A stretch of 64,000 bases of DNA, from contig CAVXDC010000004.1 in assembly GCA_963760365.1 (NCBI GenBank), positions 27,452-91,451 of the forward strand, read 5' to 3'. The position numbers and the translations under genes were made by a program. This DNA is from an uncultured Phycisphaerae bacterium (GTDB taxonomy: Bacteria; Planctomycetota; Phycisphaerae; SM23-33). The notes below the pieces were generated by a model, which made no database searches, was not told where the DNA came from, and was given only the letters and a program-made list of their open reading frames with translations. Below, piece by piece: positions 2,135 to 47,573 of the stretch. Numbering within the stretch: position 1 is the first letter of the stretch; each line of letters opens with the position of its first letter.

Positions 2135-4398
2135 TTACGGAGCACTCCATTGAAGGACGTTTTGGAGGATACTGCCGGCCAGGCCGCGATAGGTGGAATC
2201 AAACCGCAGTTCCACGGCCTTAGCTAAGTCCATGTCGTTGGTGCTGCGGACGGGCAGGGGATAGACGCGGATGGTCTCACCGGCCCGGGCGTACACAGGC
2301 ATCTGCGACAGGGGGCTGGCGACATTCCGCAACCATCGGCCGCCCGAGAGCACTTGGCCCGTCCAGAAGTCCACCCAATTGCCCTGCGGCAGGTACACGT
2401 CGCGGACGCCGCCGGGATTCATCACGGGCGCCACCAGCAGCGCCTGGCCGCAATAGAACTGATCGTCAATGTGCCAGCAGGCCGGATCGTCGCCATGGTG
2501 GAAGACCAAGGCCCGCAGCACGGGGTAGCCGGTCTGCGTGGCCGCTCGGCCCTGCTCGGCCAGGTAGGGAATCAGGCCATAGCGCAACTTCCACCATCGC
2601 CGCACGACGTCCGCCACGGCGGGGTACTCCCACGGCTCGCGCGGACTGGCCCCGTGGTAGCGCATGTGCGAGCTGAACACCCCCAACTGCGTCCAACGGA
2701 CGTACAGCTCCTCGCTTGGCCAGGAGGTCATGAATTGGGGCAACCCGTGGAAGCCGGGGATGTCGTGGCTCCAGAACGCCCAGCCGCTCAGCCCGATGTG
2801 CAGCCCGCCGCGAAGCGTTCCGGCCAGGCCGTCCCAGGTGCTCGCCGCGTCGCCGCCCCAGTGGACGGGGTAGCGGTGGCAGCCGATCCAGCCGGCCCGG
2901 GCCCAGAGGATGCCCTGGCCCTTGACCTGCTCGGTGACCTCGAAGGCGGCCTTTTGGTACAGCAGCGCGTAAAGGTTGTGCAACTTGGCGGCGGGCAGTC
3001 CGGCGTAGCAGGCCTCCATCTCGATTTTCTCGCCGAAGTCGGTCTTGATGACGGCTGCTCCCATCTCCAGCAGCTTGCGGAGCATCCCCTGGTACCACGC
3101 GACGGCCTGGGGGTTGGTGAAGTCGATCCGGCCGCTGTAGTCAACCTCCCCGAAGGCGGACGCGTCGCCGCCAGTCTTGGCCGGCAGAAAGCCGTGGTCG
3201 CGGGCGTACTCGTAAACCGCCGTGGTCTTCGACAGCGCGGGCGTCTGCCACAGGCTGATGCGAAAACCCTTTTCCAGCATTTTCCGCATGTAGCCGGCCG
3301 GATCGGGGAAGCGCTCCGGACTGAACTGCCAGTCGCATTGCCATTCCTTGGTGAACCAGCCGGTGTCCAGGTGAATGACGTCGGCGGGAAAGTCCTCCTC
3401 CCGCAGACGGTCGGCGACCTTCAGCGTTTCGTCGGCGGAGAAATACGTCATCCGGCTCATCCAGATGCCGTAGGACCACAGCGGCGCGTTGCGGGGGAAC
3501 CCGGTCAGCATGCGGTAGTGGTACAGAATTCGCTCCAGGTTGCCGCCGCCGATGAAAAAAAGGTCCAGGCAGTCGTCCTCGATGAGTCCCTGGGCGGCGC
3601 GGGTGGAGATGTCGGCCAGGCTCAGCCGCACGTGGCTGCTGGTCAGCGCCATCAGACCGTAGGGCCGGCTGGAGATGTAGAAGGGGACGTTCTTGTAGGC
3701 CCGGCGGCTGTTAACGCCCAGGGCATCGACGTTTTCCAGCACCAGCGTCTGCCCGGCCAGGTCCATCCGGGCGAACCGCTCGCCCGTGCCGGCGAAGTGC
3801 TCCCCGGGCGCCGCGTGCAGCGAGAACAGCACGCCGCGCACGCTTTTCCCCGCTGCACGTAGCCCAGTGGCAGCGACTCGGGCCGATCGGGATCGAACGT
3901 GTCGTAGGCCATGAACGGCACTTCCACCTTGCCATCGGGAATGACGGTTACCGTGAATCCCTTGGCTGGGCCGGAAGAATAGGTGCTCCAGGGACGGACG
4001 GGGGCGTCTGCCAGGTCGATGCGCATCCGCACCGTTCCGGATGAATCAATAATCTCGTATCCCCCCGGCATCTGGCGAAGCTGGAGGGGGATGGGCTGAA
4101 GCGACGGGTGCCGCTCCAGCATGACACTCTCGTCGCCGGGGACTTGGTCGCCGGTGGCCAGGCTCAGGCGAACGATCGAATCCCCGTACGCGCGGACGAC
4201 GACCTTGTGCATCTTCGTCGCGGGTTTTTCCCCTTTGGCAGGAACGGGCAACCGCTGCACGAAGGGAACGTCCAAAATCACCTGACCGCTGGCGGTGGAA
4301 GCACCCGTCGGTCGGCCGGCGGCGAAGACGACGTCGTCCTTGGCCTCCGGCAGGTGCAGGTCGAGCATGTCGTCGCTGAATCGGTTACCGGACTTCAT
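2135..4398 (-). CDS. GH31 alpha-xylosidase/alpha-glucosidase family protein, one apparent frameshift as assembled
   Basis: ORF 2135-3841 carries the GH31 catalytic core (DVIHLDTGWF, VIKTDFGE). ORF 3652-4398 is the matching N-terminal beta-sandwich domain in another frame. The two join at a T4C4 run (3844-3851). Confidence 0.8.
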
Positions 4399-4552: not shown

Positions 4553-5455
4553 GTGGGCGAATTGCCGGACAATATCCATCGCCTTGGAGAATTAATCCGC
4601 GATTGCACGCTGTGCCCGCGGAACTGTCACGTGGACCGCACGGCCGGAAAGGTCGGTGCCTGTCGTATCGGCGCCCAGGCCGTCGTGGCCTCAGCCGGCC
4701 CGCACTTTGGGGAGGAACCGGTGCTGGTGGGGCACGGCGGCAGTGGGACAATCTTTTTGGCGGGCTGCAACCTAGGCTGCGTGTTCTGCCAGAACTGGGA
4801 CATCAGCCACACCACCGATGGCACACCGTGCAGCCCTGACGTGATCGCCCAGATGGCGCTATCCCTTCAGCGCCGCGGCTGCGTGAATGTCAACTTCGTC
4901 ACGCCCACGCACGTCGCGCACGCCGTGGCCGAGGCGGTCTGGCGGGCGCGGGCGGCAGGGCTGACCGTGCCGATCGTGTATAACTGCGGCGGCTACGAGG
5001 CCGTCGAGACTCTGCGGCTGCTGGAGGGCCTGGTGGACATCTACATGCCGGACTTCAAGTACGCCGAGACTACTCCGCCGAAGCTCGTAGAGCGAAGGCT
5101 GGACGCCCAGGCCGGAGAGAAATACTCCGGGGCGAAGAACTACCCGCAGGTGGCCCAGGAAGCGCTAGCCGAGATGTACCGCCAGGTCGGCCCGCTCCAG
5201 GTGAACGACGACGGAGTAGGCACGCGCGGCGTGCTGGTCCGCCACCTGGTGATGCCCGCCGACCTGGCCCACAGCCGCCAGGTCATCGACATCGTCGCCC
5301 GCACGGCCCCGGCCTGCGCCATCAACGTCATGGGCCAGTACCACCCAGCAGGGGAGGCGTCGCGATTTCCCGAACTTCTAGCCCACCCAGCCGCCGACGA
5401 AATCTCCGCCCTCCGCCGCTACGCCACCAGCCTGGGCCTGGTACGCGTGGATTAG
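4553..5455 (+). CDS. radical SAM protein, PflX-like (pyruvate formate-lyase activase homolog family)
   Basis: CTLCPRNCHVDR and GSGTIFLAGCNLGCVFCQNWDIS form Cys clusters typical of the PflX/COG1313 radical SAM family. The ORF is intact at 300 aa with a GTG start. Confidence 0.8.
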   Translation: MGELPDNIHRLGELIRDCTLCPRNCHVDRTAGKVGACRIGAQAVVASAGPHFGEEPVLVGHGGSGTIFLAGCNLGCVFCQNWDISHTTDGTPCSPDVIAQMALSLQRRGCVNVNFVTPTHVAHAVAEAVWRARAAGLTVPIVYNCGGYEAVETLRLLEGLVDIYMPDFKYAETTPPKLVERRLDAQAGEKYSGAKNYPQVAQEALAEMYRQVGPLQVNDDGVGTRGVLVRHLVMPADLAHSRQVIDIVARTAPACAINVMGQYHPAGEASRFPELLAHPAADEISALRRYATSLGLVRVD

Positions 5456-5658
5456 TCGCAAAAGTTTTCGAAGGGATATATTTATGCTGGCCGTGAGAGG
5501 ATCGGAGTGAAAACTTCAAAGCTCCGGGCCGGTCAGCCCTGTTCCCTGGGCGATGTTCAGTTGTCACGCAGCGCCATCGAATCACAAATTCGCCCCGGAG
5601 ATAAGCTGGCACTGGAAGAGACACGTTGCCGTAGTCATAATCAGCACCGAGGTGCGAC

Positions 5659-8040
5659 ATGGAAGGACGTAGGTACCCCGATAACGCCGGTATGCCCGTG
5701 CAATTGTCTGTCCGAATTCGACCTCAGCGAATCGCAGTATTGGTCGCTGAAGCCAGTGGGACCCACGGCTTCATGAAGGCCGTTGACTTCCTGTCTCGCG
5801 TCTGGGGCGGGAAGCATGGGCACATTATTGCAGTGAGCGAGACCTCCGATAGCCATAAGCAGGCTGATGAACAGCTTGCTCTTCTTCGCCCGGAAATCGT
5901 GATGTTTGTTGATCTAGACGGCAGGCAGTGGGCTGAGAGGTCTGCCTGCATCTGCCAGCCAAGAGCCTGCGCAACTCTAGACGATGCCACAATCCAATCG
6001 CTAGATGAGGCAAACCCACTCCAATTGATCCATGCCCACTGCATATTGCACGGGGAGTACGAGAGGAGACGCGACGCCATAAGAGGTAATCTGATCCTTT
6101 GGGAACTCGACGAATCGCACCCTTGGTTTGCATTCATGGGTGCCACTTTTGGATTACTGCCTCTTCGAGCAGCGGGCAAATACGATTTTCTCAATGCGCG
6201 CTTGGAGAGCCTCAACGGAACGGAAGTCACTGATTATCTGACAGCATGCCTAAAAACCAAAGGCAGCTGGTGCTGGCTCGATTTCGCCTCAAGTAGACTT
6301 AGTATCTATCATTTTGATGATCCGTTTTTTGTGGCTGCCCCGACCGTTGTTGTATGCAATGACAATTCAGTTGCTGATCTTGCTCTCTATTGGAATCTGC
6401 GCATGACAGTGGGGGTGGGATTCTCGAAGAAGATTGTTCTTTTCCCGGAAGCCAAGGCTGACGATGCCGTTGCTATAGACGCTCTTGCGCAGTGGGTTAC
6501 GGGATGTGCCGTCGATGCAAATTTCGTCCAGGTCATCAGCCGGACCTGTCGCTGTTCTTTGCTTCGTTCTCTGGCGATTGCACTTCGGCACAGGCTAGTG
6601 GCCAGCCAGTACAAGTTCGTCGAGCTCCCCCAACCCCCCTGGATCCGAAACAGCTTAGCATTTGAGGATGAGAGACAGATTACAGGTAGCTACAACGGTT
6701 CGTACGTTGCCTTCGAGGCTCCCCGTCCGGCCTGTGTAAGCTCGATCTCAGGGGGGGACGTGTGGATATGCGACCTTCTGAAAGATGTGGAGCGCGGACG
6801 GGCTCCTGGCGACTTAGTGTTGCCGCCTACGAAAGCCGCTTTTGAAATAATTAACGCACCTTTTCCGCCTCATATTCCGGGCACCCTGTTGATTGGGCGA
6901 GGAGTTGACTCGATCAACAGAAGCTGCAACACTCAGCTGCACACAGTACGTCTGGGTCTGCCGACAAACACTGAAATGCTTGAGGGGCGGCTGCTTGATC
7001 GAGGATTTGAGATAGAAAAAGATGAAAAACGCATCAGATACGAGCAAACACTGTTGATGTTTAGTGAGCTGAATACTGCTGCACGTGTTGTTTCTGGAGC
7101 CTTCGGAAGGGCCGTCAACGCTCTTGCTGGCAACACCGAGCCTTTGAGTTTTGGCGAGATCAGTACGGCCGTTGGGCGCCTGGATGAGCAGCCGGAGTCC
7201 CAAATAGACTGGGTCTTGAATCAGTTCACTCATGGGCATATGCGGCGGATAGGCAAAGAGCGATTCCGCAGATACTATGAAAAGGAAGTCGGAAGAAGCG
7301 ACTCGATAAAGGGGCTTCTCAGTGAGCTTTGCAGGTTGAATGTTCTTGAGCACCGATGGAGGTTCAGGTGTAAGCGATGCGATAAGACCTACTGGCCCCG
7401 TCGCATTAACTTTGAACAAGTCACAAGGTGTCCCGGGTGTAAAGAGCGAGTGATTTTCGAGGACAGGGTTAAGCTAGGCTATGAGCTGAATGAGCTATTT
7501 GCATTGGCGATTCGGGAGGGATGGGGGCCGGTCATTCAGACGGGCCGCTTTCTGTACAACCTCACGCGGCGAGGATTTATGTGGCTTCCGGGGGTTAAGT
7601 GCAGAAAGGAGAGCACACGGATAGACTTTGATGTGATGTCACTATGTGATGGCCATCTTGTAGCTGCTGAGTGCAAGACCCTTCGCAATCAGGCCGACGA
7701 CGCCGATTGGGATAACATAACAGGGCAACTATGCCGGGAGGCAGAGGGTGCTCTGATGGCTGGGGTGGAGTTGTTTGTCATCGCATCCCACGTAGACGAA
7801 TACCCCCATGCCGTGCAAGATGCGGTCGCACGGGGAGCGAATATTCCCTTACTGTGGCTGGACCACAAGGATCTTGAAGATGGGCGCCGCCGAGGCAAGA
7901 AGGATCGCCACTACTTAGATATTGACGATTTTGTTCCGCACACCATCCCGAGCGTGGCTCAGTCTCGGCGTCCCAGAAAGCGGAAGCAACCAAAAACTGA
8001 GCGATACGCTGTAGTTGGCCTTGGGAAACACATTCACTGA
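5659..8040 (+). CDS. hypothetical 793-aa protein with C-terminal zinc ribbon and PD-(D/E)xK-like nuclease motif (low-G+C island gene)
   Basis: One long intact ORF lies in a region of visibly lower G+C. It has CKRC (7369-7380) and CPGC (7429-7440), then IDFDV (7621-7635) and AAECK (7663-7677), which fits a D...ExK pattern, followed by a basic tail. I found no Walker A motif and recognise nothing in the N-terminal 560 aa. Confidence 0.75.
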   Translation: MEGRRYPDNAGMPVQLSVRIRPQRIAVLVAEASGTHGFMKAVDFLSRVWGGKHGHIIAVSETSDSHKQADEQLALLRPEIVMFVDLDGRQWAERSACICQPRACATLDDATIQSLDEANPLQLIHAHCILHGEYERRRDAIRGNLILWELDESHPWFAFMGATFGLLPLRAAGKYDFLNARLESLNGTEVTDYLTACLKTKGSWCWLDFASSRLSIYHFDDPFFVAAPTVVVCNDNSVADLALYWNLRMTVGVGFSKKIVLFPEAKADDAVAIDALAQWVTGCAVDANFVQVISRTCRCSLLRSLAIALRHRLVASQYKFVELPQPPWIRNSLAFEDERQITGSYNGSYVAFEAPRPACVSSISGGDVWICDLLKDVERGRAPGDLVLPPTKAAFEIINAPFPPHIPGTLLIGRGVDSINRSCNTQLHTVRLGLPTNTEMLEGRLLDRGFEIEKDEKRIRYEQTLLMFSELNTAARVVSGAFGRAVNALAGNTEPLSFGEISTAVGRLDEQPESQIDWVLNQFTHGHMRRIGKERFRRYYEKEVGRSDSIKGLLSELCRLNVLEHRWRFRCKRCDKTYWPRRINFEQVTRCPGCKERVIFEDRVKLGYELNELFALAIREGWGPVIQTGRFLYNLTRRGFMWLPGVKCRKESTRIDFDVMSLCDGHLVAAECKTLRNQADDADWDNITGQLCREAEGALMAGVELFVIASHVDEYPHAVQDAVARGANIPLLWLDHKDLEDGRRRGKKDRHYLDIDDFVPHTIPSVAQSRRPRKRKQPKTERYAVVGLGKHIH

Positions 8041-8090
8041 TTCTTGCTATCTCGCAGGTGAGTCTCTCTGAGTACTCCATCTGTCGAAGG

Positions 8091-8241
8091 TCATCCCCCC
8101 GATTTTTCCCAAGTGGTAAGGCGTCTCCCGCAGTAACGGCACTCCCGCCGTCGCATAATCCGTCCGCCCCATGCGGCGCGCGTATAGACCACGCGGAAGT
8201 GTTTGCAGCCGCAATGGCGGCGTCCGCCTTCGCTGAGGCAC
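8091..8241 (-). pseudogene. possible small NrdR-like zinc-ribbon ORF (no in-frame start codon as assembled)
   Basis: The minus-strand translation ...HCGCKHFRVVYTRAAWGGRIMRRRECRYCGRRLTTWEKSGG* resembles the NrdR N-terminal zinc-ribbon pattern (C..C...RRRR.C..CG.RFTT.E). The only ATG (8241) is in a different frame, and a 1-nt indel would join the two. Confidence 0.3.
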
Positions 8242-8311
8242 GCGCCTGCGCTTAGGGTACGGCGTACATAACGGTGGATAGGGCGGTGAAGGGGCAATAG
8301 GAGAAATCTAC

Positions 8312-8383
8312 AGCCGACCAAGGGATTCGAACCCTCAACCCCGGCTTTACGAAAGCCGTGCTCTACCGTTGAGCTAGGTCGGC
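8312..8383 (-). tRNA. tRNA-Thr (anticodon CGU)
   Basis: The reverse complement GCCGACC-TA-GCTC-AACGGTA-GAGC-A-CGGCT-TTCGTAA-AGCCG-GGGTT-GAGGG-TTCGAAT-CCCTT-GGTCGGC-T folds as a cloverleaf. Anticodon loop is TTCGTAA. CCA is not encoded. Confidence 0.9.
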
Positions 8384-8436: not shown

Positions 8437-9367
8437 TCACGGGTCGGCGGCGACAAGGGCTTTTCCGATTGGCTCATCCGCCGCGGCCACACCCGGCAGG
8501 TTCGGCGGCGGCCAGGACGCCGCCGTCAACCACGGCAGGACGTAGTGGGTGATGAAGCTGCTGCGTGTGGTGCTGGCATGGGGTCCGCTGGAACTGTTTC
8601 CTAGCGGCCCGGTGAGCTCGAGCTGGTAGAGCTTCTGGTAGGCCTGGATGCGCTCCGGTGAGGATCTTCGCGGTGGGCCGGTCGAAGCCGATGGCCCCGG
8701 CCGCCGGACCGCGGATACCGTCCACGTTGCCCGCCAAGGTCGTGGCGATAATCAGCAGACCAACGTCCTCGCGGGTGTAGATGTTCAGGATGCCCTTGCG
8801 GCAATGATGCAGGGCGTTGGTGAGGTCATAGGCGCTGGAGATGCTGGCCGACAGCAGCACCAGGCCGTCGATGGTGATATCCTTGGGCAGGCCTTCGGTG
8901 GCAAAGACGGCTATCCCGCCGCCTCCGCTGTGGCCGATGAGATAGACGGGTCGGCCCGGATAGTTTTTCTGGTAGGATACAATTCGTTTGGCGATCTCCA
9001 GGCCCTCCAGGCGATTGCCCAGGATGTCTATCTGGTTGAGCAGGGGTCCGGCGATCGGGACGGGCCGGCCCCAGCGATAGATGGATATGGCATAGAGCAG
9101 CCCGCCGTTCAGCAAACCTCGGCGGACGTCGTGATTCAGCGAGCTTTCGCCCTCGATGCCGGGCAGGATAATGACCAGCCCGGCGTCCATGCGGTCGGAA
9201 GTCGTGAAAGGCTTGTTCGGATCGGAGGCGCAGCCGCCGGCCGAGGATAGAATCAGGGCCGGCACGAGCCAGAAGAACAGCCTCGCGAACCGGCCGCTTC
9301 CGTGGGAGGATAAGGTTCTTGCGGCGGGTTCACCGGAAAGCAGACAGTAACCGGAGGCGATAGCCAC
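8437..9367 (-). CDS. alpha/beta-hydrolase (esterase/lipase-like) lipoprotein, probable frameshift near 8645
   Basis: There is a lipobox LSSAGGC and a nucleophile elbow LIGHSGGGGIAVFA. The C-terminal tail of ORF 8474-9367 turns low-complexity, while an alternative frame reads PERIQAYQKLYQLELTGPL...FITHYVLPWL and ends at 8437. Confidence 0.6.
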
Positions 9368-9487: not shown

Positions 9488-10024
9488 ATGGGCAAGGAAG
9501 ACATACCGGATTTCGAGCAGGAGGGAGGGGAGCTGGGTGACTTTGTGCCGGCGGTGTTTGCCCGCTCGGTCGAGGAGGCCGAGGAGTATCGCCAGCTCCT
9601 GGACGACCATGACATCCCTGCCATCGTGGGCGGTGAGGATCGCCCCGAAGGACGATCCGACCAACCGGGCCAGCGCGGAGGTTTCAGCCGCGGCGTGCCG
9701 GTGCTGGTTCCCGAGGCCCTGCTGGATGAGGCTGGGGAGGTCATCGCGGAGCGCGACGAGGCGGATGAGTTCGACCTGAAGAAAGAAGAGGCCGACGAAG
9801 AAGAGGACGAAGAGGAGGAGTTCGAACTCGACGAGAGTGACCGAGAGGGTGAGAAAGAAGACCTTTCTACGGACCTGGACGAGGAAGAGAACGAAGAAGA
9901 TGAGAAAGAAAAAGACGACCTGGAGGACGAGGACCTGTTCGGATACGATGACAGCGACGATGAAGAAGATGAAGACGAAGAAGATGGCAAACAGGACTCC
10001 GGCGAGGAGGACGTTAGCCTCTGA
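9488..10024 (+). CDS. hypothetical acidic protein (small globular N-domain plus D/E-rich tail)
   Basis: ATG start. The N-terminal ~90 aa look like ordinary protein (FARSVEEAEEYRQLLDDHDIPAIVGG). The C-terminal ~90 aa are almost entirely Asp/Glu. Confidence 0.55.
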   Translation: MGKEDIPDFEQEGGELGDFVPAVFARSVEEAEEYRQLLDDHDIPAIVGGEDRPEGRSDQPGQRGGFSRGVPVLVPEALLDEAGEVIAERDEADEFDLKKEEADEEEDEEEEFELDESDREGEKEDLSTDLDEEENEEDEKEKDDLEDEDLFGYDDSDDEEDEDEEDGKQDSGEEDVSL

Positions 10025-10147: not shown

Positions 10148-10486
10148 ATGACTGACAGTGAATCGAGCAAGCGTGCCGGCAGCGAGTCTTCAGAACCCGA
10201 AGGGACTGACCGTCGCCGCGGCGACCGTCGCGGTGTGATGGACCGTCGCGGCGTGATGGACCGTCGCAGCGGGCTGGACCGCCGCCGCGGTCCGGGCCGA
10301 CGCCGCAGCGACGAGCGGAGGGCCGCCGAAGAGGGCGAGATGACCGACGAGCAGTTCGAGTTCATCATGGCCCTCAACGAATACAAGGCCGTCAACAAGC
10401 GACCCTTTCCCACCTGGACCGAAGTCCTGGACCTCATCAAGGCTTTGGGCTATAGAAAAGTGGCCAAAAGGCGGAATATCCGCTAG
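10148..10486 (+). CDS. hypothetical Arg-rich protein with DRRG repeats and a conserved-looking C-terminal domain
   Basis: ATG start. The N-terminal half is DRRRG/DRRGVM repeats. The C-terminal MTDEQFEFIMALNEYKAVNKRPFPTWTEVLDLIKALGYRKV looks like a folded domain. Confidence 0.6.
   Translation: MTDSESSKRAGSESSEPEGTDRRRGDRRGVMDRRGVMDRRSGLDRRRGPGRRRSDERRAAEEGEMTDEQFEFIMALNEYKAVNKRPFPTWTEVLDLIKALGYRKVAKRRNIR
10208..10312 (+). repeat. imperfect tandem 18-bp (one 15-bp) coding repeats, consensus GACCGTCGCGGYGTGATG
   Basis: Units start at 10208, 10223, 10241, 10259, 10277 and 10295. They encode DRRRG, DRRGVM, DRRGVM, DRRSGL, DRRRGP and GRRRSD. Confidence 0.85.
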
Positions 10487-10510: not shown

Positions 10511-11149
10511 ATGACCAGCATAGCGGACATCGCGATTTCCACCCGCGTGGTCACGTTGACCGTGCCGGTGGCCGTGTACTTCCTGATCCTAGGTTCGCTG
10601 AACACGCGCCGCCGACCGCAGATGCTCACGGGCCGGGCGGATTTTGCGCTGCTCATCGCCGCCCTCAGCCCGTTGGTCTTCCTGCCGATCACGAAATCTC
10701 TGGGCGGTTCGCCCCTGGCTGGACTGGCCGTGGCCGTCTGTCTGGCTGCGGCGATCCTGGTCCTGTCGCCGGCGGGGCGGTCGTGGGTGATCTACAACAT
10801 CTCACTGCACACCGCTCGCGACACCGTGGCCGCGGCGCTGCGAGGGATGGGAATGGATTTTGCCCGCTCGGCAGAGGGATTCACCGTTCAGGCCGCACAG
10901 GCCACCATAACGGTTGAGGGCTTCTGGCTGCTCCGCAACGCCACCATCCGCCTTCAAGGCGGCGACCGGCGCTTCGCCAAGGCCTTCCAGGCTGCCTTGG
11001 GCAGTCGGTTGGCCATCCTGGAATGCCAGACCTCGCCCATGGCCGTCTCGATGCTGCTGGTGGCCATGGTCATGCTGGCCGTCCCCCTGGCCCTGATGGC
11101 CCAGGACACCCCCCAGATTGTCCGCATCCTGACGGACCTGCTGCACTGA
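10511..11149 (+). CDS. hypothetical integral membrane protein
   Basis: ATG start. Several hydrophobic helices are present (VVTLTVPVAVYFLILG, FALLIAALSPLVFL, LAVAVCLAAAILVL, MLLVAMVMLAVPLALM). No family recognised. Confidence 0.55.
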   Translation: MTSIADIAISTRVVTLTVPVAVYFLILGSLNTRRRPQMLTGRADFALLIAALSPLVFLPITKSLGGSPLAGLAVAVCLAAAILVLSPAGRSWVIYNISLHTARDTVAAALRGMGMDFARSAEGFTVQAAQATITVEGFWLLRNATIRLQGGDRRFAKAFQAALGSRLAILECQTSPMAVSMLLVAMVMLAVPLALMAQDTPQIVRILTDLLH

Positions 11150-11169
11150 TCGGCCCCGGGGCAGGGGGG

Positions 11170-12375
11170 TCAACTCGCCAACCACCTTCGAACCCACGGG
11201 ATGGCTTTGGTACTATCCCAGCGGTGGCCGCCGTGGAACACGTCGAACTCCAGGCGATCCGGGCAGCCCAGTACCTGGTACGCCTGGCGGGCGATGTCCA
11301 CCTGGGGCTGGACGTTGGCTACGCCTTCCGGGCCGGAAAGCTTGTCTTCGTCACCGGTCTGGACCAGCAGCGGTCTAGGCGCGATCAAGGCGGCCAAGTC
11401 GCCAAGCTCCAGGTACTCCCACAAGTGCGGCACCATGTTGCACGGGCAGTTGTGCTTGTTGAACAGCAGCGGGGCGGCCACCGGGTGAAGGTAGCCGCTG
11501 ACGACCACGCACGCCGGCCGCTCGTCCACGACACTCAGGGCCAGGCTCTGCCAGCCCCCGCCGCTGAAGCCCACGCAGCCGATGCGGTCAGGCCGAACGT
11601 CGTCACGGGCCTGAAGGTGGTCCACCAGGCGCACCAAGTCGAAGGCGTGCATGCCGATCACCGAGATGCCCATCGGCAAGCCGACCATTTGAAGATAGGT
11701 GCAGGAGCTTTGCGTGGGGCTCTTGCGAGCGTCGGCCTCGCGACGCTGACCGAAGCCGCGGGCGTCGGGACAAAACGCCAACATCCCCTTCCGCGCGAAC
11801 TGCACGCCCATGGCGGCGTTGTTGACTGAGACGTCCGGTGCAGCGTCACCTTCCTCCGCGACGCCAGCGGTGGAGCCTTTTCCACCCCCGTGGCCGTGGC
11901 AGCAGATCACGGCCGGGGCGGGGGCGTTCAGGCCCTTGGGCCGCAGGAGATAAAACGGCATGGTGACGTCCGGCTCAACGTCGATCAGCCAGAGCTCGCG
12001 CATGAAATCACCGCAATCCACGGCCTGGGTCTGGCGGGGGTTCGGTGGCGTCGGCGTCATGCGGTCGAAACCCGTCAGCTCGATGAACTTGGCCCGGGCG
12101 GCTGAGGTCCAGGCCTTCAACTCCTTGGCCGTCCTAGCCTTCAGGCCCAGACGGCGGGGATGGGCGGCGTAGTAGTCCATCAGGTGCTTGCGGCTGTCGA
12201 AGAAGTCTTTCGTGGATCGTGTAGAAGCCATGTCGATTCTCCTGGCATCGGCGGATGACGAGGACTGAGGCTTCGCGGCCGTGGCGCCCAAGGCCAGGGA
12301 AGCGCCCTTGGCTGCGCTCAGGCCCACCGCGGAGAGGGCGGCCTTTAAGAAGCCGCGCCGAGTCATATCTTGCAT
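11170..12375 (-). CDS. Tat-signal alpha/beta hydrolase (dienelactone hydrolase/acetyl-xylan-esterase-like)
   Basis: Twin-arginine signal MTRRGFLKAALSAVG and nucleophile elbow GCVGFSGGGW. The ORF is intact. The start could be 12375 or 12366. Confidence 0.7.
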   Translation of the reverse strand: MQDMTRRGFLKAALSAVGLSAAKGASLALGATAAKPQSSSSADARRIDMASTRSTKDFFDSRKHLMDYYAAHPRRLGLKARTAKELKAWTSAARAKFIELTGFDRMTPTPPNPRQTQAVDCGDFMRELWLIDVEPDVTMPFYLLRPKGLNAPAPAVICCHGHGGGKGSTAGVAEEGDAAPDVSVNNAAMGVQFARKGMLAFCPDARGFGQRREADARKSPTQSSCTYLQMVGLPMGISVIGMHAFDLVRLVDHLQARDDVRPDRIGCVGFSGGGWQSLALSVVDERPACVVVSGYLHPVAAPLLFNKHNCPCNMVPHLWEYLELGDLAALIAPRPLLVQTGDEDKLSGPEGVANVQPQVDIARQAYQVLGCPDRLEFDVFHGGHRWDSTKAIPWVRRWLAS

Positions 12376-12464
12376 ATCACGCACACCAACTACCCCGGCC
12401 CAAAATAACCGGGAACTTGACCGGAGCTGAAAACCATCAGACGTTTCGGGGCTACGAAATTCAA

Positions 12465-12492
12465 TTGAAATCCTCCGCCTTGGCGTTAAACT
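12465..12492 (+). promoter_or_regulatory. candidate sigma70-type promoter for rpmE (TTGAAA-N16-TAAACT)
   Basis: The hexamers were read directly from the sequence, about 40 nt upstream of the rpmE ATG. Confidence 0.3.
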
Positions 12493-12533
12493 AGCCGATC
12501 TTAGGTTCGGGCCAAGCGGTCCAAGGTTAGGCC

Positions 12534-12758
12534 ATGAAAGAGAAGATTCACCCGCAATACAAGGAAAGCACGGTGACCTGCGCCTGCGGGAACACCTTTA
12601 AGACGCGCTCCACCAAGGGCAACATCCAGGTGGATATCTGCGCCAATTGCCATCCGTTCTACACCGGCAAGCAGAAGTTCGTAGACACCGCTGGCCGGGT
12701 CGAGAAGTTCCAACGCAAGTTCGGCGGGGAATACTTCAAGAAATCCGACAAGAAATAG
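12534..12758 (+). CDS. rpmE: 50S ribosomal protein L31 (Zn-binding type A)
   Basis: [27 protein letters not shown]...[28 protein letters not shown] is a canonical L31 sequence. Confidence 0.95.
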
Positions 12759-12774
12759 CTGCGCCCAACCGCCA

Positions 12775-12808
12775 CGCCGACGATCCTTGCGAGAGCGTCG
12801 GCGTTTTT
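12775..12808 (+). terminator. rho-independent terminator after rpmE
   Basis: Stem CGCCGACG (12775-12782) pairs with CGTCGGCG (12796-12803) and is followed by TTTTT (12804-12808). Confidence 0.6.
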
Positions 12809-12878
12809 CTATCACTGGTTTGGCCGACTGGTCAGGAGCCGGCAGGAACAAAGTCAGGACGTTTCGGTGTTATCGCCC

Positions 12879-13985
12879 ATGACGGCCACGAAAGAATCCT
12901 GGTTACAAAAGCTTCAAGAGCTGGACCGTCGTCTGGTTCAGATCGCGCAGGAGATGAGCGATCCAGCCGCGTCGGCCCAGCCGGCGCGATATACCGCGCT
13001 GGCCAAGGAGCACGCGCGCCTGGCCCGAACCGTCGAGCCGTTCCGGGCTTATCAGGCCATCGAGACCCACCGCTGCGAGGCGCAAGCCATCCTGGATGAT
13101 CCGGCCGCCGACAAGGATCTTAAGACCCTGGCGGCCGGGGAGATCGACTCGCTCAACGCCCGAGCGACTGAGGCGATGGAGAAGCTCAAAGGCCTGCTGG
13201 TCATGAGCGACGACCAGGAGATCGACTCGGTGGCGCTGGAGGTCCGCGCGGGCACGGGGGGCGAAGAGGCGGCATTGTTCGCCGCTGACCTGCTGGCCAT
13301 GTACCGCCGCTACGCCGAAGGCCAGGGGTGGCGGTTCGAGATCCTCTCAGCCAGTCCCACGGACATGGGGGGCTTTCGCGAGGTGATCGTGTCCGTCAAG
13401 GGCGAGGGCGCCTGGAGTCGCCTGGGCTACGAGGCCGGGGGGCACCGCGTCCAGCGCGTGCCCGAGACCGAGGCCCAGGGTCGGATCCACACCTCGGCCG
13501 CTACCGTGGCCGTGCTGCCGGAAACAGACGACATCGAAGTCCAGATCAACTGGGACAAGGACGTCCTGGAACACACCAGCCGGGCCGGTGGCCCCGGCGG
13601 GCAGAACGTCAACAAGGTCGAGTCGGCCGTGCGGCTGGAGCACATCCCCACCGGCATCACCGTCTCCATGCGCGATGAAAAAAGCCAGCACAAGAACCGC
13701 GCCAAGGCCCGGAGGATCCTGGCGCTTCGGGTCTACGAGCACTTCCGCAATCAACAGCTTGCCGCCGAGGCGGCCGCAAGAAAATCCATGATCGGCTCGG
13801 GCGACCGTTCCCAGCGCATCCGCACCTACAACTTCCCGCAGAACCGCTGCACCGACCACCGGCTCAAGGGCCAGGGCAAAGAAGGGACGAACTTCAACCT
13901 CGACCAAGTCATGGCCGGGGAGTTGGACGAGATGATCGATGCCCTGGTCACCCACGACAAGGCACAGCGCCTGGCCGATCTGTAG
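12879..13985 (+). CDS. prfA: peptide chain release factor 1
   Basis: It has the GGQ motif ([23 protein letters not shown]) and a PxT-type tripeptide (RVPETE) rather than the SPF of RF2. An upstream in-frame GTG at 12867 is an alternative start. Confidence 0.92.
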
Positions 13986-44387: not shown

Positions 44388-45583
44388 ATGGAAACGAAGA
44401 CTTACTGTGCCCCCTCGATGGCCGAGGCGCTAGCCGAGGTGAAGCGAGACCTCGGCCGGGACGCCGTGATTATGCACACCCGCTACTTCCGCAAGGGTGG
44501 GTGGCTGGGCATCGGTGGCCGGCCGATGTGGGAGATCACCGCTTCCTCCCAGGTGAACGTCCCGCTACGCCTGCCTTCAGGCCGATACGTGCCTGTGCCT
44601 CCCTCCGACGTCCTGGCCTTGCCTTCCGGAGGTCTCGCAGCCGCGGACGCCGGCACCACTGACACCCTCAGCGAGGCGCTATGCCAGAGGATGGGAGAGA
44701 TCCACCACATGGTGGCTAGGCTGCTCAGCCGCACGAGCGAACCTTTGTCCGGGAAAGCGACCCTGGCCGTGCCGGAGACCCTTCCCGAAGAACTCACCTC
44801 CTGGCGTTCGCACCTCTTGCGTCAGGAACTGGCTGAAGAAACGGTGAACCAATTGATGGAGCAGCTTCGCAAGGACCTGACGGCCGAGGAGATGACCCGC
44901 GCCGCCACGGTCCGCCAACGCCTCGTGGACCTGATTTCCGCGCCATCCCCACGGCCGACGTGAACGTGCCGTCGGCGACGGGTCGGCCCCGCGTGATTGT
45001 CCTGATCGGTCCGACCGGCGTCGGCAAGACCACAACCATCGCCAAGCTGGCCGCCCGCTACAAGCTCGCTGCCAACCGGCGGGTAGGACTGATTACCATC
45101 GACACGTATCGCATCGCGGCGGTCAACCAGCTCAAGACCTACGCCCAGATTATCGAGGTGCCGCTGCGGACGGTGCTCAGGCCGGCGGAGCTGTCTGAGG
45201 CAATCGCCTCCATGGCTGAGCAGGACTTGCTGCTCATCGACACCGCCGGGCGCAGCCCCGCCGACGCCCCGCGGCTACGTCAGATGCAAAGCTTCCTGGA
45301 AGCGGCGCAGGCGGACGAGGTGCACCTGGTCGTGTCGGTGACGGCGGGGCCCTCCTGTGCCGCACGGGTCATCGAGAACTTCATGCCTCTGGGCGCCAAC
45401 CGGTTGATCCTATCGAAGCTTGATGAGGCGGGGACCTTTGGTATGCTGCTGAACATCGCCTCCGCCGCCAAAGCCGCGCTGAGCTTCGTGACTACCGGCC
45501 AGGAAGTTCCGGACGATATCGCCCCGGCCAATCCCCGGCACCTGGCGGAACTGATTGTGGGAGAAGAGACGTATGGCGCTTGA
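44388..45583 (+). CDS. flhF: flagellar biosynthesis GTPase FlhF, one apparent frameshift near 44940
   Basis: The N-terminal B-domain is METKTYCAPSMAEALAEVKRDLGRDAVIMHTR. The SRP-type G-domain has VIVLIGPTGVGKTTTIAKLA, DTYRIAA and LLIDTAGRS. The two ORFs (44388-44963 and 44960-45583) differ by one frame. Confidence 0.85.
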
Positions 45584-46421
45584 AGACCAGGCTGGCAAAC
45601 TGCGTCGGTTAATGCAGCAGGCGCGACGCACGCGCACCATCGCCGTGACCAGCGGCAAAGGCGGCGTTGGCAAGAGCAACGTGGCATTGAACCTGGCCAT
45701 CCTACTCTCGGCGGCGGGCCATCGCGTGGCCCTGGTGGACGCCGACCTGGGACTGGCCAACATCGACGTCCTGGTAGACGTGAACGTGCGGAGCAACCTA
45801 TCGCACGTTATCGCCGGGCTGAAGCGGCTGGAGGAAATCGTCGTGGACTTGCCCAGCGGCGTGCAGTTCGTCCCCGGCGCCAGCGGGCTGACCCGGCTTG
45901 CTCGTCTGTCGGACTTTCAACGGGCTCAACTGCTGAAGGACTTGACCGCCCTGGAGGCCGACAACGACATTATCGTCATCGACACGGCCGCGGGCATCGG
46001 CCCGGACGTCGTCCAGTTGTCCATCAGCGCTGACAACGTCCTGGTCGTGACCACGCCGGAACCCCCGGCCGTCACGGATAGCTACGCCATGACCAAAGTC
46101 CTGGTCCGCAGCGGCTACAACGGACACATCAGCCTGCTGGTCAACTTCGTGGCCAACCGCCATGAGGCCCGCACGACTTTCGCGCGGATCTCTGGCGTCG
46201 CACGGCAGTTCCTTGGCACCGTTGTGTACGACGCTGGCTACGTCCTGACGGATCCCAAAGTCCCCGAGGCCGTCCGAAAACGCGAACCCGTGGTGCTGGC
46301 ATACCCAAAATGCCCAGCCAGTCAGTGCCTGGTGGCATTGGCGACAAAGCTGTCCGCCGGGGGTGCCCTTGTATCCAGAAAAGAAGGTTTTTTCAGCAGG
46401 GTCGCCAACTGGTTTGCATAA
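45573..46421 (+). CDS. flhG: MinD/ParA-type ATPase FlhG (FleN/YlxH)
   Basis: It has the deviant Walker A TSGKGGVGKSNVALNLA. It lies directly after flhF with an 11-nt overlap. Confidence 0.88.
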   Translation: MALEDQAGKLRRLMQQARRTRTIAVTSGKGGVGKSNVALNLAILLSAAGHRVALVDADLGLANIDVLVDVNVRSNLSHVIAGLKRLEEIVVDLPSGVQFVPGASGLTRLARLSDFQRAQLLKDLTALEADNDIIVIDTAAGIGPDVVQLSISADNVLVVTTPEPPAVTDSYAMTKVLVRSGYNGHISLLVNFVANRHEARTTFARISGVARQFLGTVVYDAGYVLTDPKVPEAVRKREPVVLAYPKCPASQCLVALATKLSAGGALVSRKEGFFSRVANWFA

Positions 46422-46511
46422 CCATTTATTCTGAAAAGAGTTGGGGGCATGGATGCCACCAAAAAATATCATCTTCCTCTTAAAACCCTTAGGAAAAACA
46501 AGGATTTTACC

Positions 46512-46539
46512 TTGACATATCTGATGGTATGCGTAGAAT
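46512..46539 (+). promoter_or_regulatory. sigma70-type promoter for fliA (TTGACA-N16-TAGAAT)
   Basis: Near-consensus hexamers were read directly in the AT-rich 227-bp spacer between flhG and fliA. Confidence 0.5.
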
Positions 46540-46648
46540 AGAAAAAATGCATAAAATACATAATATGGGTAATTCAATTGCAAATACACACTGAGGACAG
46601 CAAAGACTGGCTGCAAAACGCGATCAAGGACGATCCAAAGGAGCCAGC

Positions 46649-47440
46649 ATGAAGGTCAACGAAACTAAGACCAGCACGGATCAAGTCCAACAGTGGTGGA
46701 AAGCGTACCGCAAAGACAGGGATGAGGAGGCCAGGAACCGCCTGATGGAGCACTATCTGCCGATCGTCAAGTATACGGCCGAGAGACTGTACTCCAAACT
46801 GCCGAATGAAGTGGACATGGACGATCTGGTGTCCACCGGCATCTTCGGGCTTATGGACGCCATCTCGGCCTTTGACGAGAAGCGCGGAGTAAAGTTCGAG
46901 ACCTATTGCGCGCCTCGAATCCGCGGGGCGATGCTGGACGAGCTGCGCTCAATGGACTGGGTGCCTCGGCTAGTCCGCAGCCGGGCCCACAAGCTCAATG
47001 AGGCCCGTCACGAGCTGGAGGTGCAGCTAGGGCGCCGGCCGGACGATGGGGAGCTAGCCAAGAGGATGCGGATGCCCATGCGGGAGTTCCGCAAGCTCCA
47101 GCGCGACGCTCGCGCCGTGGGGTTGGTCAGCTTGAGCCGCAAGTGGTTTGAGACCGATTCGCACAAGGACGTCCGCGAGATCGACGTGCTGGAGGACAAA
47201 AAAAGCGACGATCCGCTTCGGACGGCGACCCGCAAGGACATCAAGGACCTGATGACCCGCGGACTGAGCCGGGCCGAGCGGCTGATTATCATCCTGTACT
47301 ACTTCGAAGAAATGACCATGAAGGAGATCGGGGAGACGTTGGACTTATCCGAAAGCCGCGTCAGCCAGATGCACTCGGCTATCCTGACCAGGCTGCGGCG
47401 CCAACTGGAGAAGCGACGCAAGGAACTCTCGACCGTGTGA
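46649..47440 (+). CDS. fliA: flagellar sigma factor FliA (sigma-28/WhiG family)
   Basis: Region 2 is LVSTGIFGLMDAISAFDEKRGVKFETYCAPRIRGAMLDELR. Region 4 is LSRAERLIIILYYFEEMTMKEIGETLDLSESRVSQMH. Confidence 0.9.
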   Translation: MKVNETKTSTDQVQQWWKAYRKDRDEEARNRLMEHYLPIVKYTAERLYSKLPNEVDMDDLVSTGIFGLMDAISAFDEKRGVKFETYCAPRIRGAMLDELRSMDWVPRLVRSRAHKLNEARHELEVQLGRRPDDGELAKRMRMPMREFRKLQRDARAVGLVSLSRKWFETDSHKDVREIDVLEDKKSDDPLRTATRKDIKDLMTRGLSRAERLIIILYYFEEMTMKEIGETLDLSESRVSQMHSAILTRLRRQLEKRRKELSTV

Positions 47441-47573
47441 ATCTTCCAGGGCCTATGGAACCGCGCGGCGGGATTGGGATTTTACCGCAATTTTCTTTTC
47501 TAGGGTTATGGGGTGTTGTGCAGGCCGGAGGGAGACTCTGTATAATGGCCAGGCCTATCTGAGGAACACTCTC

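Follow-up and report, generated by a model that had tools for sequence, protein, structure and literature searches.

Which kind of protein is encoded by a solitary gene lodged between a radical-SAM gene and tRNA-Thr in an uncultured Phycisphaerae bacterium, and is that gene native to its position? We addressed these questions using a stretch of 64,000 nucleotides (nt) from assembly GCA_963760365.1 (contig CAVXDC010000004.1, positions 27,452 to 91,451), hereafter the window. All positions below refer to it. The gene is an intact open reading frame (ORF) of 793 amino acids (aa) on the plus strand (5659-8040). It occupies a segment of low guanine-plus-cytosine (G+C) content that ends at tRNA-Thr. 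An earlier reading of the bare DNA, hereafter the original prediction, had described an orphan protein with a zinc ribbon and nuclease-like motifs. The protein was suggested to be a horizontally acquired, stand-alone defence or mobile-element effector that could not be assigned to a named family. Our analysis points to a protein that couples a large putative sensor to a Can2-type nuclease. We consider it to be a self-contained defence effector, encoded by one gene, with a probability of roughly one half.

We began with the nuclease domain. A model of the protein was generated using AlphaFold2 (AF2) and an alignment of 88 diverse homologs, with identities to the window protein down to ~17%. This model has a predicted local distance difference test score (pLDDT) of 92.8 and a predicted template modelling score (pTM) of 0.92. 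It supersedes a shallow model built from 8 sequences (pLDDT 53.8). The C-terminal part contains an alpha-beta-beta-beta-alpha-beta core comprising helices (residues 612-634), strands (640-673), a further helix (681-700) and a last strand (705-710). Hence, AF2 places a restriction-endonuclease-like fold around D658, E671 and K673, a check that had been proposed with the original prediction. The model was compared with the PDB using Foldseek. Ranks 1-7 were taken by Cdn1 (9u49, E = 7e-6), Can2 (8q3y and 7bdv), VC1899 (1xmx) and Card1 (6xl1 and 6wxw), with E values extending to 1e-3. The shallow model gives the same Cdn1/Card1 ranking. When a viral library was searched instead, the top matches were restriction endonucleases.

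The active site was compared at the level of individual residues. For this comparison, active-site strings were translated from the synthetic genes listed in Table S1 of PMC7969007. The strings of SthCan2 (NELDVVFLYHNKLHVIECKT), TsuCan2 (DELDVALLLDNRLWVLECKA), VC1899 (NELDVATVVNNKLHIIECKT) and the window protein (IDFDVMSLCDGHLVAAECKT) share the same (E/D)xD-x12-ECK signature and identical spacing. SthCan2 and VC1899 have NELDV-x12-ECK where the window protein has IDFDV-x12-ECK. The active site of the window protein thus reads D656-x-D658-x12-E671-C-K673. Can2 is inactivated by mutations at E276/D278 and E302/K304 (PMC7969007). These positions correspond to D656/D658 and E671/K673, respectively. 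Given the model and the shared motif, we assign the domain to the PD-(D/E)xK nucleases of the Card1/Can2/VC1899 type (DUF1887), though it falls below the cutoff of the relevant Pfam model (PF09002). The enzyme is predicted to be metal-dependent. Contrary to what had been supposed, the nuclease domain is therefore of an assignable type.

Matches to sequence models converge on the same residues. The Pfam model Card1_endonuc (PF09002) scores 13.8 bits, below its 26.4-bit cutoff (E = 0.042, residues 650-686), and none of the 62 family members searched reached E ≤ 0.01. The PADLOC models Csx1 and CARF_PDDEXK gave sub-threshold local matches in the nuclease part only (E = 0.03). A PDB profile search returned zinc-ribbon noise and the Cdn1 sequence at E = 0.24. 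The Card1_endonuc, Csx1, CARF_PDDEXK and Cdn1 matches, all weak hidden Markov model (HMM) matches, lie within residues 645-697. Among the 62 members, 13 matched the Csx1 model, which describes a CARF domain with a nuclease (best match 5.9e-7). A few members gave weak Pfam matches to NERD or Hjc that involve the same catalytic residues. We also aligned the family profile with Can1, using a sequence fetched from pTT27 and verified as 6SCE. Here, hhalign paired the D-x-D...ECK core with Can1 residues 538-596 and aligned nothing else. No Pfam, NCBIfam or PADLOC model scored above threshold on the window protein or the 62 members. Likewise, a scan of PDB sequences with the window protein returned nothing above threshold.

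The protein is not the orphan originally described. A word-indexed search for homologs found only 7 relatives, at 34-55% identity, and recovered the same 8 proteins when rerun with the 88-sequence profile. Conversely, an exhaustive HMMER profile search identified 1359 clusters at 50% identity (E ≤ 1e-3), of which 186 reached E ≤ 1e-30. Most members are 750-820 aa long. Hence, the word-indexed search understated the size of the family and was corrected by the exhaustive one. Family members occur in Phycisphaerae, in metagenome-assembled genomes of Desulfobacteraceae and other Deltaproteobacteria, and in marine and sediment metagenomes. The closest relative, P0002 (locus L007, a contig of GCA_052915985.1), is ~55-58% identical. 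Its sequence, of 509 aa, breaks off ahead of the zinc ribbon and nuclease, perhaps through truncation or a frameshift. The genes around it show no synteny with the window.

Conservation across the 88 sequences is strongest at the predicted active site. Residues D658, E671 and K673 are invariant, as is G165 in the N-terminal region. Each of the cysteines C571, C574, C591 and C594 is 97% conserved. At 90% or above are D656 (90%), D664, G665 and C672 (94%), together with R21, P22, G50, G51, P78, P101, W369, P435 and K457 in the N-terminal and middle regions; W49 reaches 89%. These data refine the original prediction. The motifs CKRC (7369-7380), CPGC (7429-7440), GYELNE, IDFDV (7621-7635) and AAECK (7663-7677) had all been located exactly. 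In the proposed catalytic set, E671 and K673 are indeed invariant, but the invariant aspartate of the first motif is D658 (100%) and not D656. The window copy is full-length and retains every invariant or near-invariant catalytic and zinc-binding residue.

Architecture is equally constant. Using domain HMMs derived from the family alignment, we found six modules, N1-N2-BETA-HEL-ZNR-NUC, in 90 of 90 full-length representatives. Briefly, these are two alpha/beta domains, a beta-rich domain, a helical domain, the zinc ribbon and the nuclease. No alternative effector or sensor was evident among the top 155 family entries, and the shorter entries look like contig fragments. The family is thus characterised by an invariant catalytic triad, a Cys4 site and a fixed multi-domain architecture. 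An all-against-all comparison of neighbouring genes, covering about 16 genomic contexts, identified no recurrent partner. Because the six modules are fixed and no neighbour family recurs, the gene is a self-contained unit and has no obligate partner. At two loci (L006, 1-2379; L024, 2-2368) a ~790-aa protein is encoded directly upstream of the family member and could be a lineage-specific partner. That protein has no Pfam match and no PDB sequence match. It was considered as a paralog and rejected; the 792-aa gene product shows no relation to the family by hhalign.

We turned to the N-terminal 560 residues, in which the original prediction had recognised nothing. Our searches agree. The model divides this region into two Rossmann-like domains, one beta domain and a helical domain, none of which matches a known family. 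Specifically, residues 1-560 gave no sequence match in Pfam, NCBIfam or PADLOC, for the window protein and the 62 members, or in the PDB profile search. The first domain, N1, is Rossmann/flavodoxin-like, with conserved R21-P22, R24, W49-G50-G51, P78-(D/E)79 and Q100-P101. In N2, conserved residues are the invariant G165, D240, W245-N246-x-R248, P263, W279 and S294. Most of R21, R24, W49-G50-G51, D/E79, Q100-P101, D240 and W245-N246-x-R248 map to strand-helix loops of the modelled alpha/beta domains. Rossmann-like folds usually bind ligands in such loops. In the model, the arrangement looks typical of ligand-binding Rossmann-like domains. The helical domain may bind DNA, and the C-terminal tail is modelled as a short terminal beta-hairpin.

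Two other interpretations of the N-terminal region were rejected. An internal duplication giving rise to N1 and N2 produced no signal when the two were compared by hhalign. A resemblance to ANL adenylating enzymes or periplasmic-binding proteins comes from low-ranked Foldseek hits only (FadD32, FAAL, LacI and PnrA; probability ≤0.57, TM ≤0.26) and is non-significant.

How might such a protein work? By analogy with Can2, Card1 and Cdn1, the N-terminus may exert allosteric control over the nuclease. We propose that the conserved N-terminal alpha/beta modules would keep the nuclease inactive, and would release it upon binding a trigger associated with infection. The trigger could be a small nucleotide-like ligand or a component of the invader. 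The helical domain, zinc ribbon and basic tail might then position nucleic acid, the likely substrate, for cleavage. The outcome would be destruction of the invader or abortive infection, and no partner gene would be needed.

The genomic surroundings of the family bear on this proposal. At locus L017 a complete hsdR-hsdM-hsdS operon lies directly upstream of the family gene, and at L020 it adjoins hsdS and hsdM. At L001 a Type IIG restriction-modification (R-M) gene is found ~8 kb upstream and an HNH gene directly downstream. A transposase and a GIY-YIG gene are nearby at L009. Locus L014 has a breakpoint 405 nt upstream of the family gene. Only 14 nt from that breakpoint is the end of an integrase gene, part of an element that also carries Xis-HTH, TraG-like and RHS genes. 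We count the R-M neighbours at L017, L020 and L001, the HNH gene at L001 and the integrase element at L014 as defence-like ecology in favour of a defence effector. The gene has a lower G+C content than its flanks in 15 of 17 homolog loci, where flank values range from ~0.37 to ~0.67. The metagenome contigs L012 and L014 are 99.8% identical from position 9557 on, 405 nt upstream of the homolog, and unrelated before it. The breakpoint lies beside the integrase gene; hence, an integrative element has inserted next to a family member.

Other observations weigh against a defence effector with its own sensor. No known sensor shows detectable homology to the N-terminal domains; hence, the idea of an allosteric sensor is drawn from the architecture and from the analogy to Can2, Card1 and Cdn1. 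No PADLOC-DB v2.0.0 defence model matches the window protein, or any of the 62 members, over its full length. R-M genes adjoin the family in only 2-3 of the contexts compared, and the copies at L015, L022/L023 and L026, like that in the window, have housekeeping flanks only. Finally, no promoter-like site was evident 5' of the gene; a scan for sigma-70 promoters and for terminators gave results no better than shuffled sequence, and the sigma-70 model may not suit planctomycetes.

The R-M neighbours are also consistent with another explanation. The protein could be a solitary restriction-type endonuclease, resembling either Type IV enzymes or Type II enzymes that lack a methyltransferase. Its N-terminal domains, helical domain and zinc ribbon would recognise DNA themselves, for instance modified phage DNA or a certain DNA structure, and cleavage would follow without a small-molecule trigger. 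Solitary restriction genes often adjoin R-M operons, as the family does at L017 and L020. The nuclease is intact, and no methyltransferase is encoded in the island or its flanks, so no cognate enzyme is adjacent. A zinc ribbon, a helical domain and a Lys/Arg tail would suit DNA binding, and the viral-library matches are annotated as restriction endonucleases. However, we detected no known modification-reading domain in Pfam (SRA, YTH, DUF3427, Mrr-N and similar). The nearest solved relatives of the nuclease are allosterically gated and sequence-nonspecific, and are not restriction enzymes. Furthermore, the two conserved Rossmann-like domains would appear to resemble ligand binders more than DNA readers. 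We regard a restriction enzyme as unlikely. A CARF-type effector acting in trans is distinctly unlikely. Here, a very divergent CARF-like N-terminal domain would sense a cyclic oligoadenylate (cOA) or another cyclic nucleotide, and so switch on the Can2-type nuclease. The messenger would come from a Cas10 or CD-NTase whose gene lies at another place in the genome. Consistent with this, the best structural matches of both AF2 models are complete CARF-nuclease proteins (Cdn1, Can2, VC1899 and Card1). The Foldseek alignments to Cdn1, Can2 and Card1 extend over 528-627 columns, whereas the nuclease domain has only ~140 residues; hence, an N-terminal alpha/beta domain co-aligns with CARF. In addition, VC1899 is itself an orphan CARF-nuclease with no link to CRISPR (PMC7969007). 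Against this, the same alignments have a root mean square deviation (rmsd) of 17-23 Å and template modelling (TM) scores of 0.29-0.35, so there is no rigid superposition with the CARF-nucleases. No CARF signal was found in residues 1-560 by Pfam, NCBIfam or PADLOC over the 62 members, or by hhalign of N1 and N2 against Can1 (probability ≤0.2%, a weak comparison with one template sequence). The sensor region is also four times as large as a CARF domain. No Cas10, other cas gene or CD-NTase occurs among the neighbours annotated by Pfam, which represent part of the contexts compared, or among the 25 PADLOC families listed for pooled neighbours. The 64-kb window contains no CRISPR array.

The gene may also have no role in immunity. 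It could encode a nuclease for mobile-element or DNA metabolism (maintenance, exclusion, recombination or repair), or be a decaying passenger without current function. Such a role would fit the neighbours that occur patchily across loci (integrase, Xis and TraG genes at L014, a transposase at L009 and an HNH gene at L001), the truncation of P0002 ahead of its zinc ribbon and nuclease, and the many copies that sit amid housekeeping genes. However, searches of 50,697 phage records and 72,556 plasmid records by tblastn, and a scan of IMG/VR, found no relatives, and for want of support in these collections a phage- or plasmid-borne origin was rejected. No mobile-element gene has a conserved link to the family. 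The window copy has kept its full length and all catalytic and zinc-binding residues, and a 790-aa architecture that stays fixed down to ~17% identity to the window protein argues that the protein is under strong selection over its whole length. We consider a non-immune role very unlikely.

The proposed sensor-nuclease is best placed among known systems by comparison with the CARF-nucleases. Nucleases of the Can2 type work as dimers that form a composite cleft. To our knowledge, the Can2, Card1 and Cdn1 nucleases occur only as cOA-gated helpers of type III CRISPR. Can2, Card1, VC1899 (DUF1887, PF09002) and Cdn1 share the nuclease fold with the window protein, being its best PDB matches, and also have an alpha/beta domain N-terminal to the nuclease. 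Their length is 340-440 aa, about half that of the window protein. The latter has ~450 extra residues between and around its putative sensor and its nuclease, consisting of a second alpha/beta domain, the beta domain, the helical domain and the Cys4 ribbon. Unlike Can2, Card1 and Cdn1, the family has no sequence-detectable CARF signature and no CRISPR-Cas association in the contexts seen. VC1899 resembles the family in not being CRISPR-linked. Can1 (TTHB155, 6SCE) combines two CARF domains, a nuclease-like domain and a PD-(D/E)xK nuclease in one chain. Like Can1, the window protein is a large single chain in which two alpha/beta domains precede a PD-(D/E)xK nuclease at the C-terminus. Unlike it, the window protein has a zinc ribbon, and no homology was detected beyond the catalytic core; Can1 is outside the top 50 Foldseek matches. 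Can1 is also located in a type III CRISPR locus on pTT27.

The same logic is found in Shedu SduA, Cap4 and the nuclease module of Avs4, in which a sensing region, variable or large, is joined to a restriction-endonuclease-fold effector in a mobile single gene. However, no PADLOC model of these systems matches the window protein. For Avs4 there was only a weak match over 87 columns of the nuclease (Foldseek rank 29). Unlike single-protein sensor effectors such as Avs4, the window protein lacks an NTPase/STAND module and a Walker A motif.

Literature searches and all profile libraries used gave no account of the six-module architecture. Hence, the effector domain is known, whereas we found no description of the family, of its sensor region or of its deployment as a single gene independent of CRISPR. 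The catalytic module of the CRISPR helpers is here built into a much larger autonomous protein, represented by >1300 clusters across distant lineages. A defence role would add a one-gene system, and would provide a tractable model for the gating of a Can2-type nuclease in the absence of a canonical CARF domain. A bolder version of the proposal is that of CRISPR-independent immunity from one gene. Here, a new sensor of ~440 residues, two Rossmann-like domains plus the beta domain, would have captured a nuclease of the Can2/Card1 type and would respond to a signal new to prokaryotic immunity. That signal might be a nucleotide messenger of a new kind or a molecule derived from phage. The protein, as a monomer or dimer, would then be an all-in-one counterpart of cOA signalling. 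We hold this version to be doubtful.

Is the gene native to its position? The original prediction held that G+C content drops sharply after the pflX-like gene, and the drop is clear. Segment 5456-8311 (2856 nt) has a G+C content of 0.538, the minimum for sliding windows of this length across the 64 kb, where the lowest value lies at 5451. Compared with 20 non-overlapping windows (mean 0.643, standard deviation 0.019), the segment has a z-score of -5.4. The dip is thus highly significant, and hand counts of G+C in single 60-nt lines (25/60, 24/60 and 47/60) were exact on recount. In 400-nt steps, values are 0.49-0.57 over ~5400-8200 and 0.61-0.70 in the flanks. At third codon positions, the G+C content of the 793-aa ORF is 0.559, and that of seven neighbouring genes is 0.75-0.88. 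As had been noted, the ORF is the only long one in the island; M12 (ATG at 5692) is an alternative start. The flanks consist of ordinary host genes: GH10, a frameshifted GH31, the radical-SAM gene (4553-5455), a hydrolase, Abhydrolase_7 and a release factor.

Homologs of the adjacent radical-SAM protein place the host among relatives of the Phycisphaerae (Planctomycetota). The same locus was located in three Phycisphaerae relatives on long contigs (L032, L033 and L035), in which the radical-SAM orthologs are 85, 80 and 79% identical, respectively. The relatives share the order GH31, radical-SAM, tRNA-Thr, Hydrolase_4, three small genes, Abhydrolase_7, L31 and release factor, with the variable interval between the radical-SAM gene and tRNA-Thr. 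Homology detected by blastn stops at 5453, the radical-SAM stop, and restarts at the boundary of the tRNA, position 8312 (8310 in L033). No remnant of the 793-aa protein was found in these relatives by tblastn. Instead, the interval holds different cargo in each. In L032, the nearest relative (10928-13059), it is 2.3 kb long, with a prepilin-like ORF and a trypsin-like protease. Its G+C content is 0.55, against 0.65 elsewhere, and this cargo is therefore likewise atypical in composition. Judged by eye, the protease ends in a PEP-CTERM-like hydrophobic stretch and basic tail. The interval in L033 holds a GH10 gene, and that in L035, of ~950 nt, a frameshifted copy of the prepilin-like gene. Given these breakpoints, the absence of the gene from all three relatives and the differing cargo, 5456-8311 is foreign, lineage-specific DNA in a recombination hotspot between the radical-SAM gene and tRNA-Thr. 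The deviant composition, the lower G+C content of the gene than of its flanks at 15 of 17 homolog loci and the non-syntenic setting of P0002 also speak for a foreign origin. The horizontal acquisition that had been claimed is thus borne out, and the gene is not part of a syntenic core. In Phycisphaerae, this interval is a variable hotspot whose cargo turns over without a resident integrase.

The mode of insertion is a separate matter. The original prediction saw the classical geometry of integration at a tRNA. ARAGORN and Rfam agree that tRNA-Thr is on the minus strand with its 3' end at 8312; hence, that end faces the island. Position, deviant composition and absence from relatives all fit the classical picture, and are shared, like the variable cargo, with tRNA-adjacent islands and core-gene-flanked defence hotspots. 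Unlike such islands, this one has no integrase, its single ORF lacking an integrase domain and no other ORF being supported. Nor is there a tRNA-derived direct repeat of ≥11 nt at the distal, radical-SAM boundary. The sole 11-nt match to the tRNA (6828-6838, family D14) is mid-gene. The only repeat found to bracket the island derives from the 3' end of the radical-SAM gene. This degenerate repeat (5412-5448 versus 8223-8265) scores 14.6, a value reached by 0.6% of 3183 other 119-nt windows and by 0 of 2000 shuffles. A cleaner 17/19-nt repeat, stop codon included, surrounds the GH10 cargo in L033 (10849-10867 and 12135-12153; p = 0.003). The repeat in L035 is weaker and marginal (10842-10852 and 11785-11795), and L032 has no significant bracketing repeat. 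The repeats are suggestive of scars: DNA would have inserted more than once at the 3' end of the radical-SAM gene, with att-like duplication, and the tRNA would not have been the target. The features of the island are listed in Table 1.

Table 1. The island, its anchors and the modules of the 793-aa protein, in window coordinates.
Feature	Position	Strand	Basis or remark
Radical-SAM gene (PflX-like activating enzyme), left anchor, host core	4553..5455	+	Pfam Radical_SAM; orthologs 79-85% identical in syntenic Phycisphaerae contigs
Degenerate direct repeat, left copy (last ~37 nt of radical-SAM ORF)	5412..5448	+	Gapped local alignment
Lineage-specific low-G+C island	5456..8311	.	From radical-SAM stop codon to tRNA-Thr 3' end
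N1, first Rossmann/flavodoxin-like alpha/beta domain, aa 12-150	5692..6108	+	AF2 secondary structure; conservation
N2, second alpha/beta domain, aa 153-325	6115..6633	+	AF2; conservation
Beta-rich domain, aa 326-436; conserved W369, D372, P389, P435	6634..6966	+	AF2; conservation
Helical domain, possibly winged-helix-like, aa 437-560; KDEKRIRY motif (E456, K457)	6967..7338	+	AF2; alignment
Cys4 zinc ribbon, aa 561-604, modelled at 563-604 (C571, C574, C591, C594)	7339..7470	+	97% conservation; weak Pfam, NCBIfam and PDB zinc-ribbon matches
Predicted PD-(D/E)xK nuclease domain, Card1/Can2/VC1899 type, aa 605-745	7471..7893	+	Foldseek; motif spacing; hhalign
Catalytic codons D656; D658; E671; K673	7624-7626; 7630-7632; 7669-7671; 7675-7677	+	
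Lys/Arg-rich C-terminal tail, aa 746-793	7894..8037	+	Alignment; low conservation and occupancy
Degenerate direct repeat, right copy; possibly att-like scar	8223..8265	+	47 nt from tRNA 3' end
tRNA-Thr(CGT), right anchor	8312..8383	-	ARAGORN; Rfam 66.7 bits; same place in L032, L033 and L035
Alpha/beta hydrolase, right flank	8474-9367	-	

Elsewhere in the window, frameshifts had been reported in neighbouring genes, and at least one neighbour is indeed split. The GH31 glycosidase (2135-4398, minus strand) consists of overlapping ORFs at 2135-3841 and 3652-4398, and is a single 755-aa gene in L032. The split is a frameshift or a sequencing error. Many such splits occur in L035, so some assemblies may be error-prone. 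To the right of the island, an ORF at 9488-10024 (plus strand) encodes an extremely acidic, Glu/Asp-rich protein of 178 aa with no Pfam match; the relatives have a gene of 179-180 aa there. A tandem repeat of 18 nt (10208-10306; 3.7-5.7 copies) lies within an ORF at 10148-10486 (plus strand). This ORF encodes a small Arg-rich protein with a DRRGVM-like repeated peptide, and a 106-aa gene occupies the corresponding position in L032 and L033. After the island, G+C content in the window is lowest at ~46000-47500 (0.55-0.56 per kb). The genes there, one for a ParA/MinD-type ATPase (45555-46421) and one for a sigma-70-family factor (46649-47440), look like ordinary host genes.

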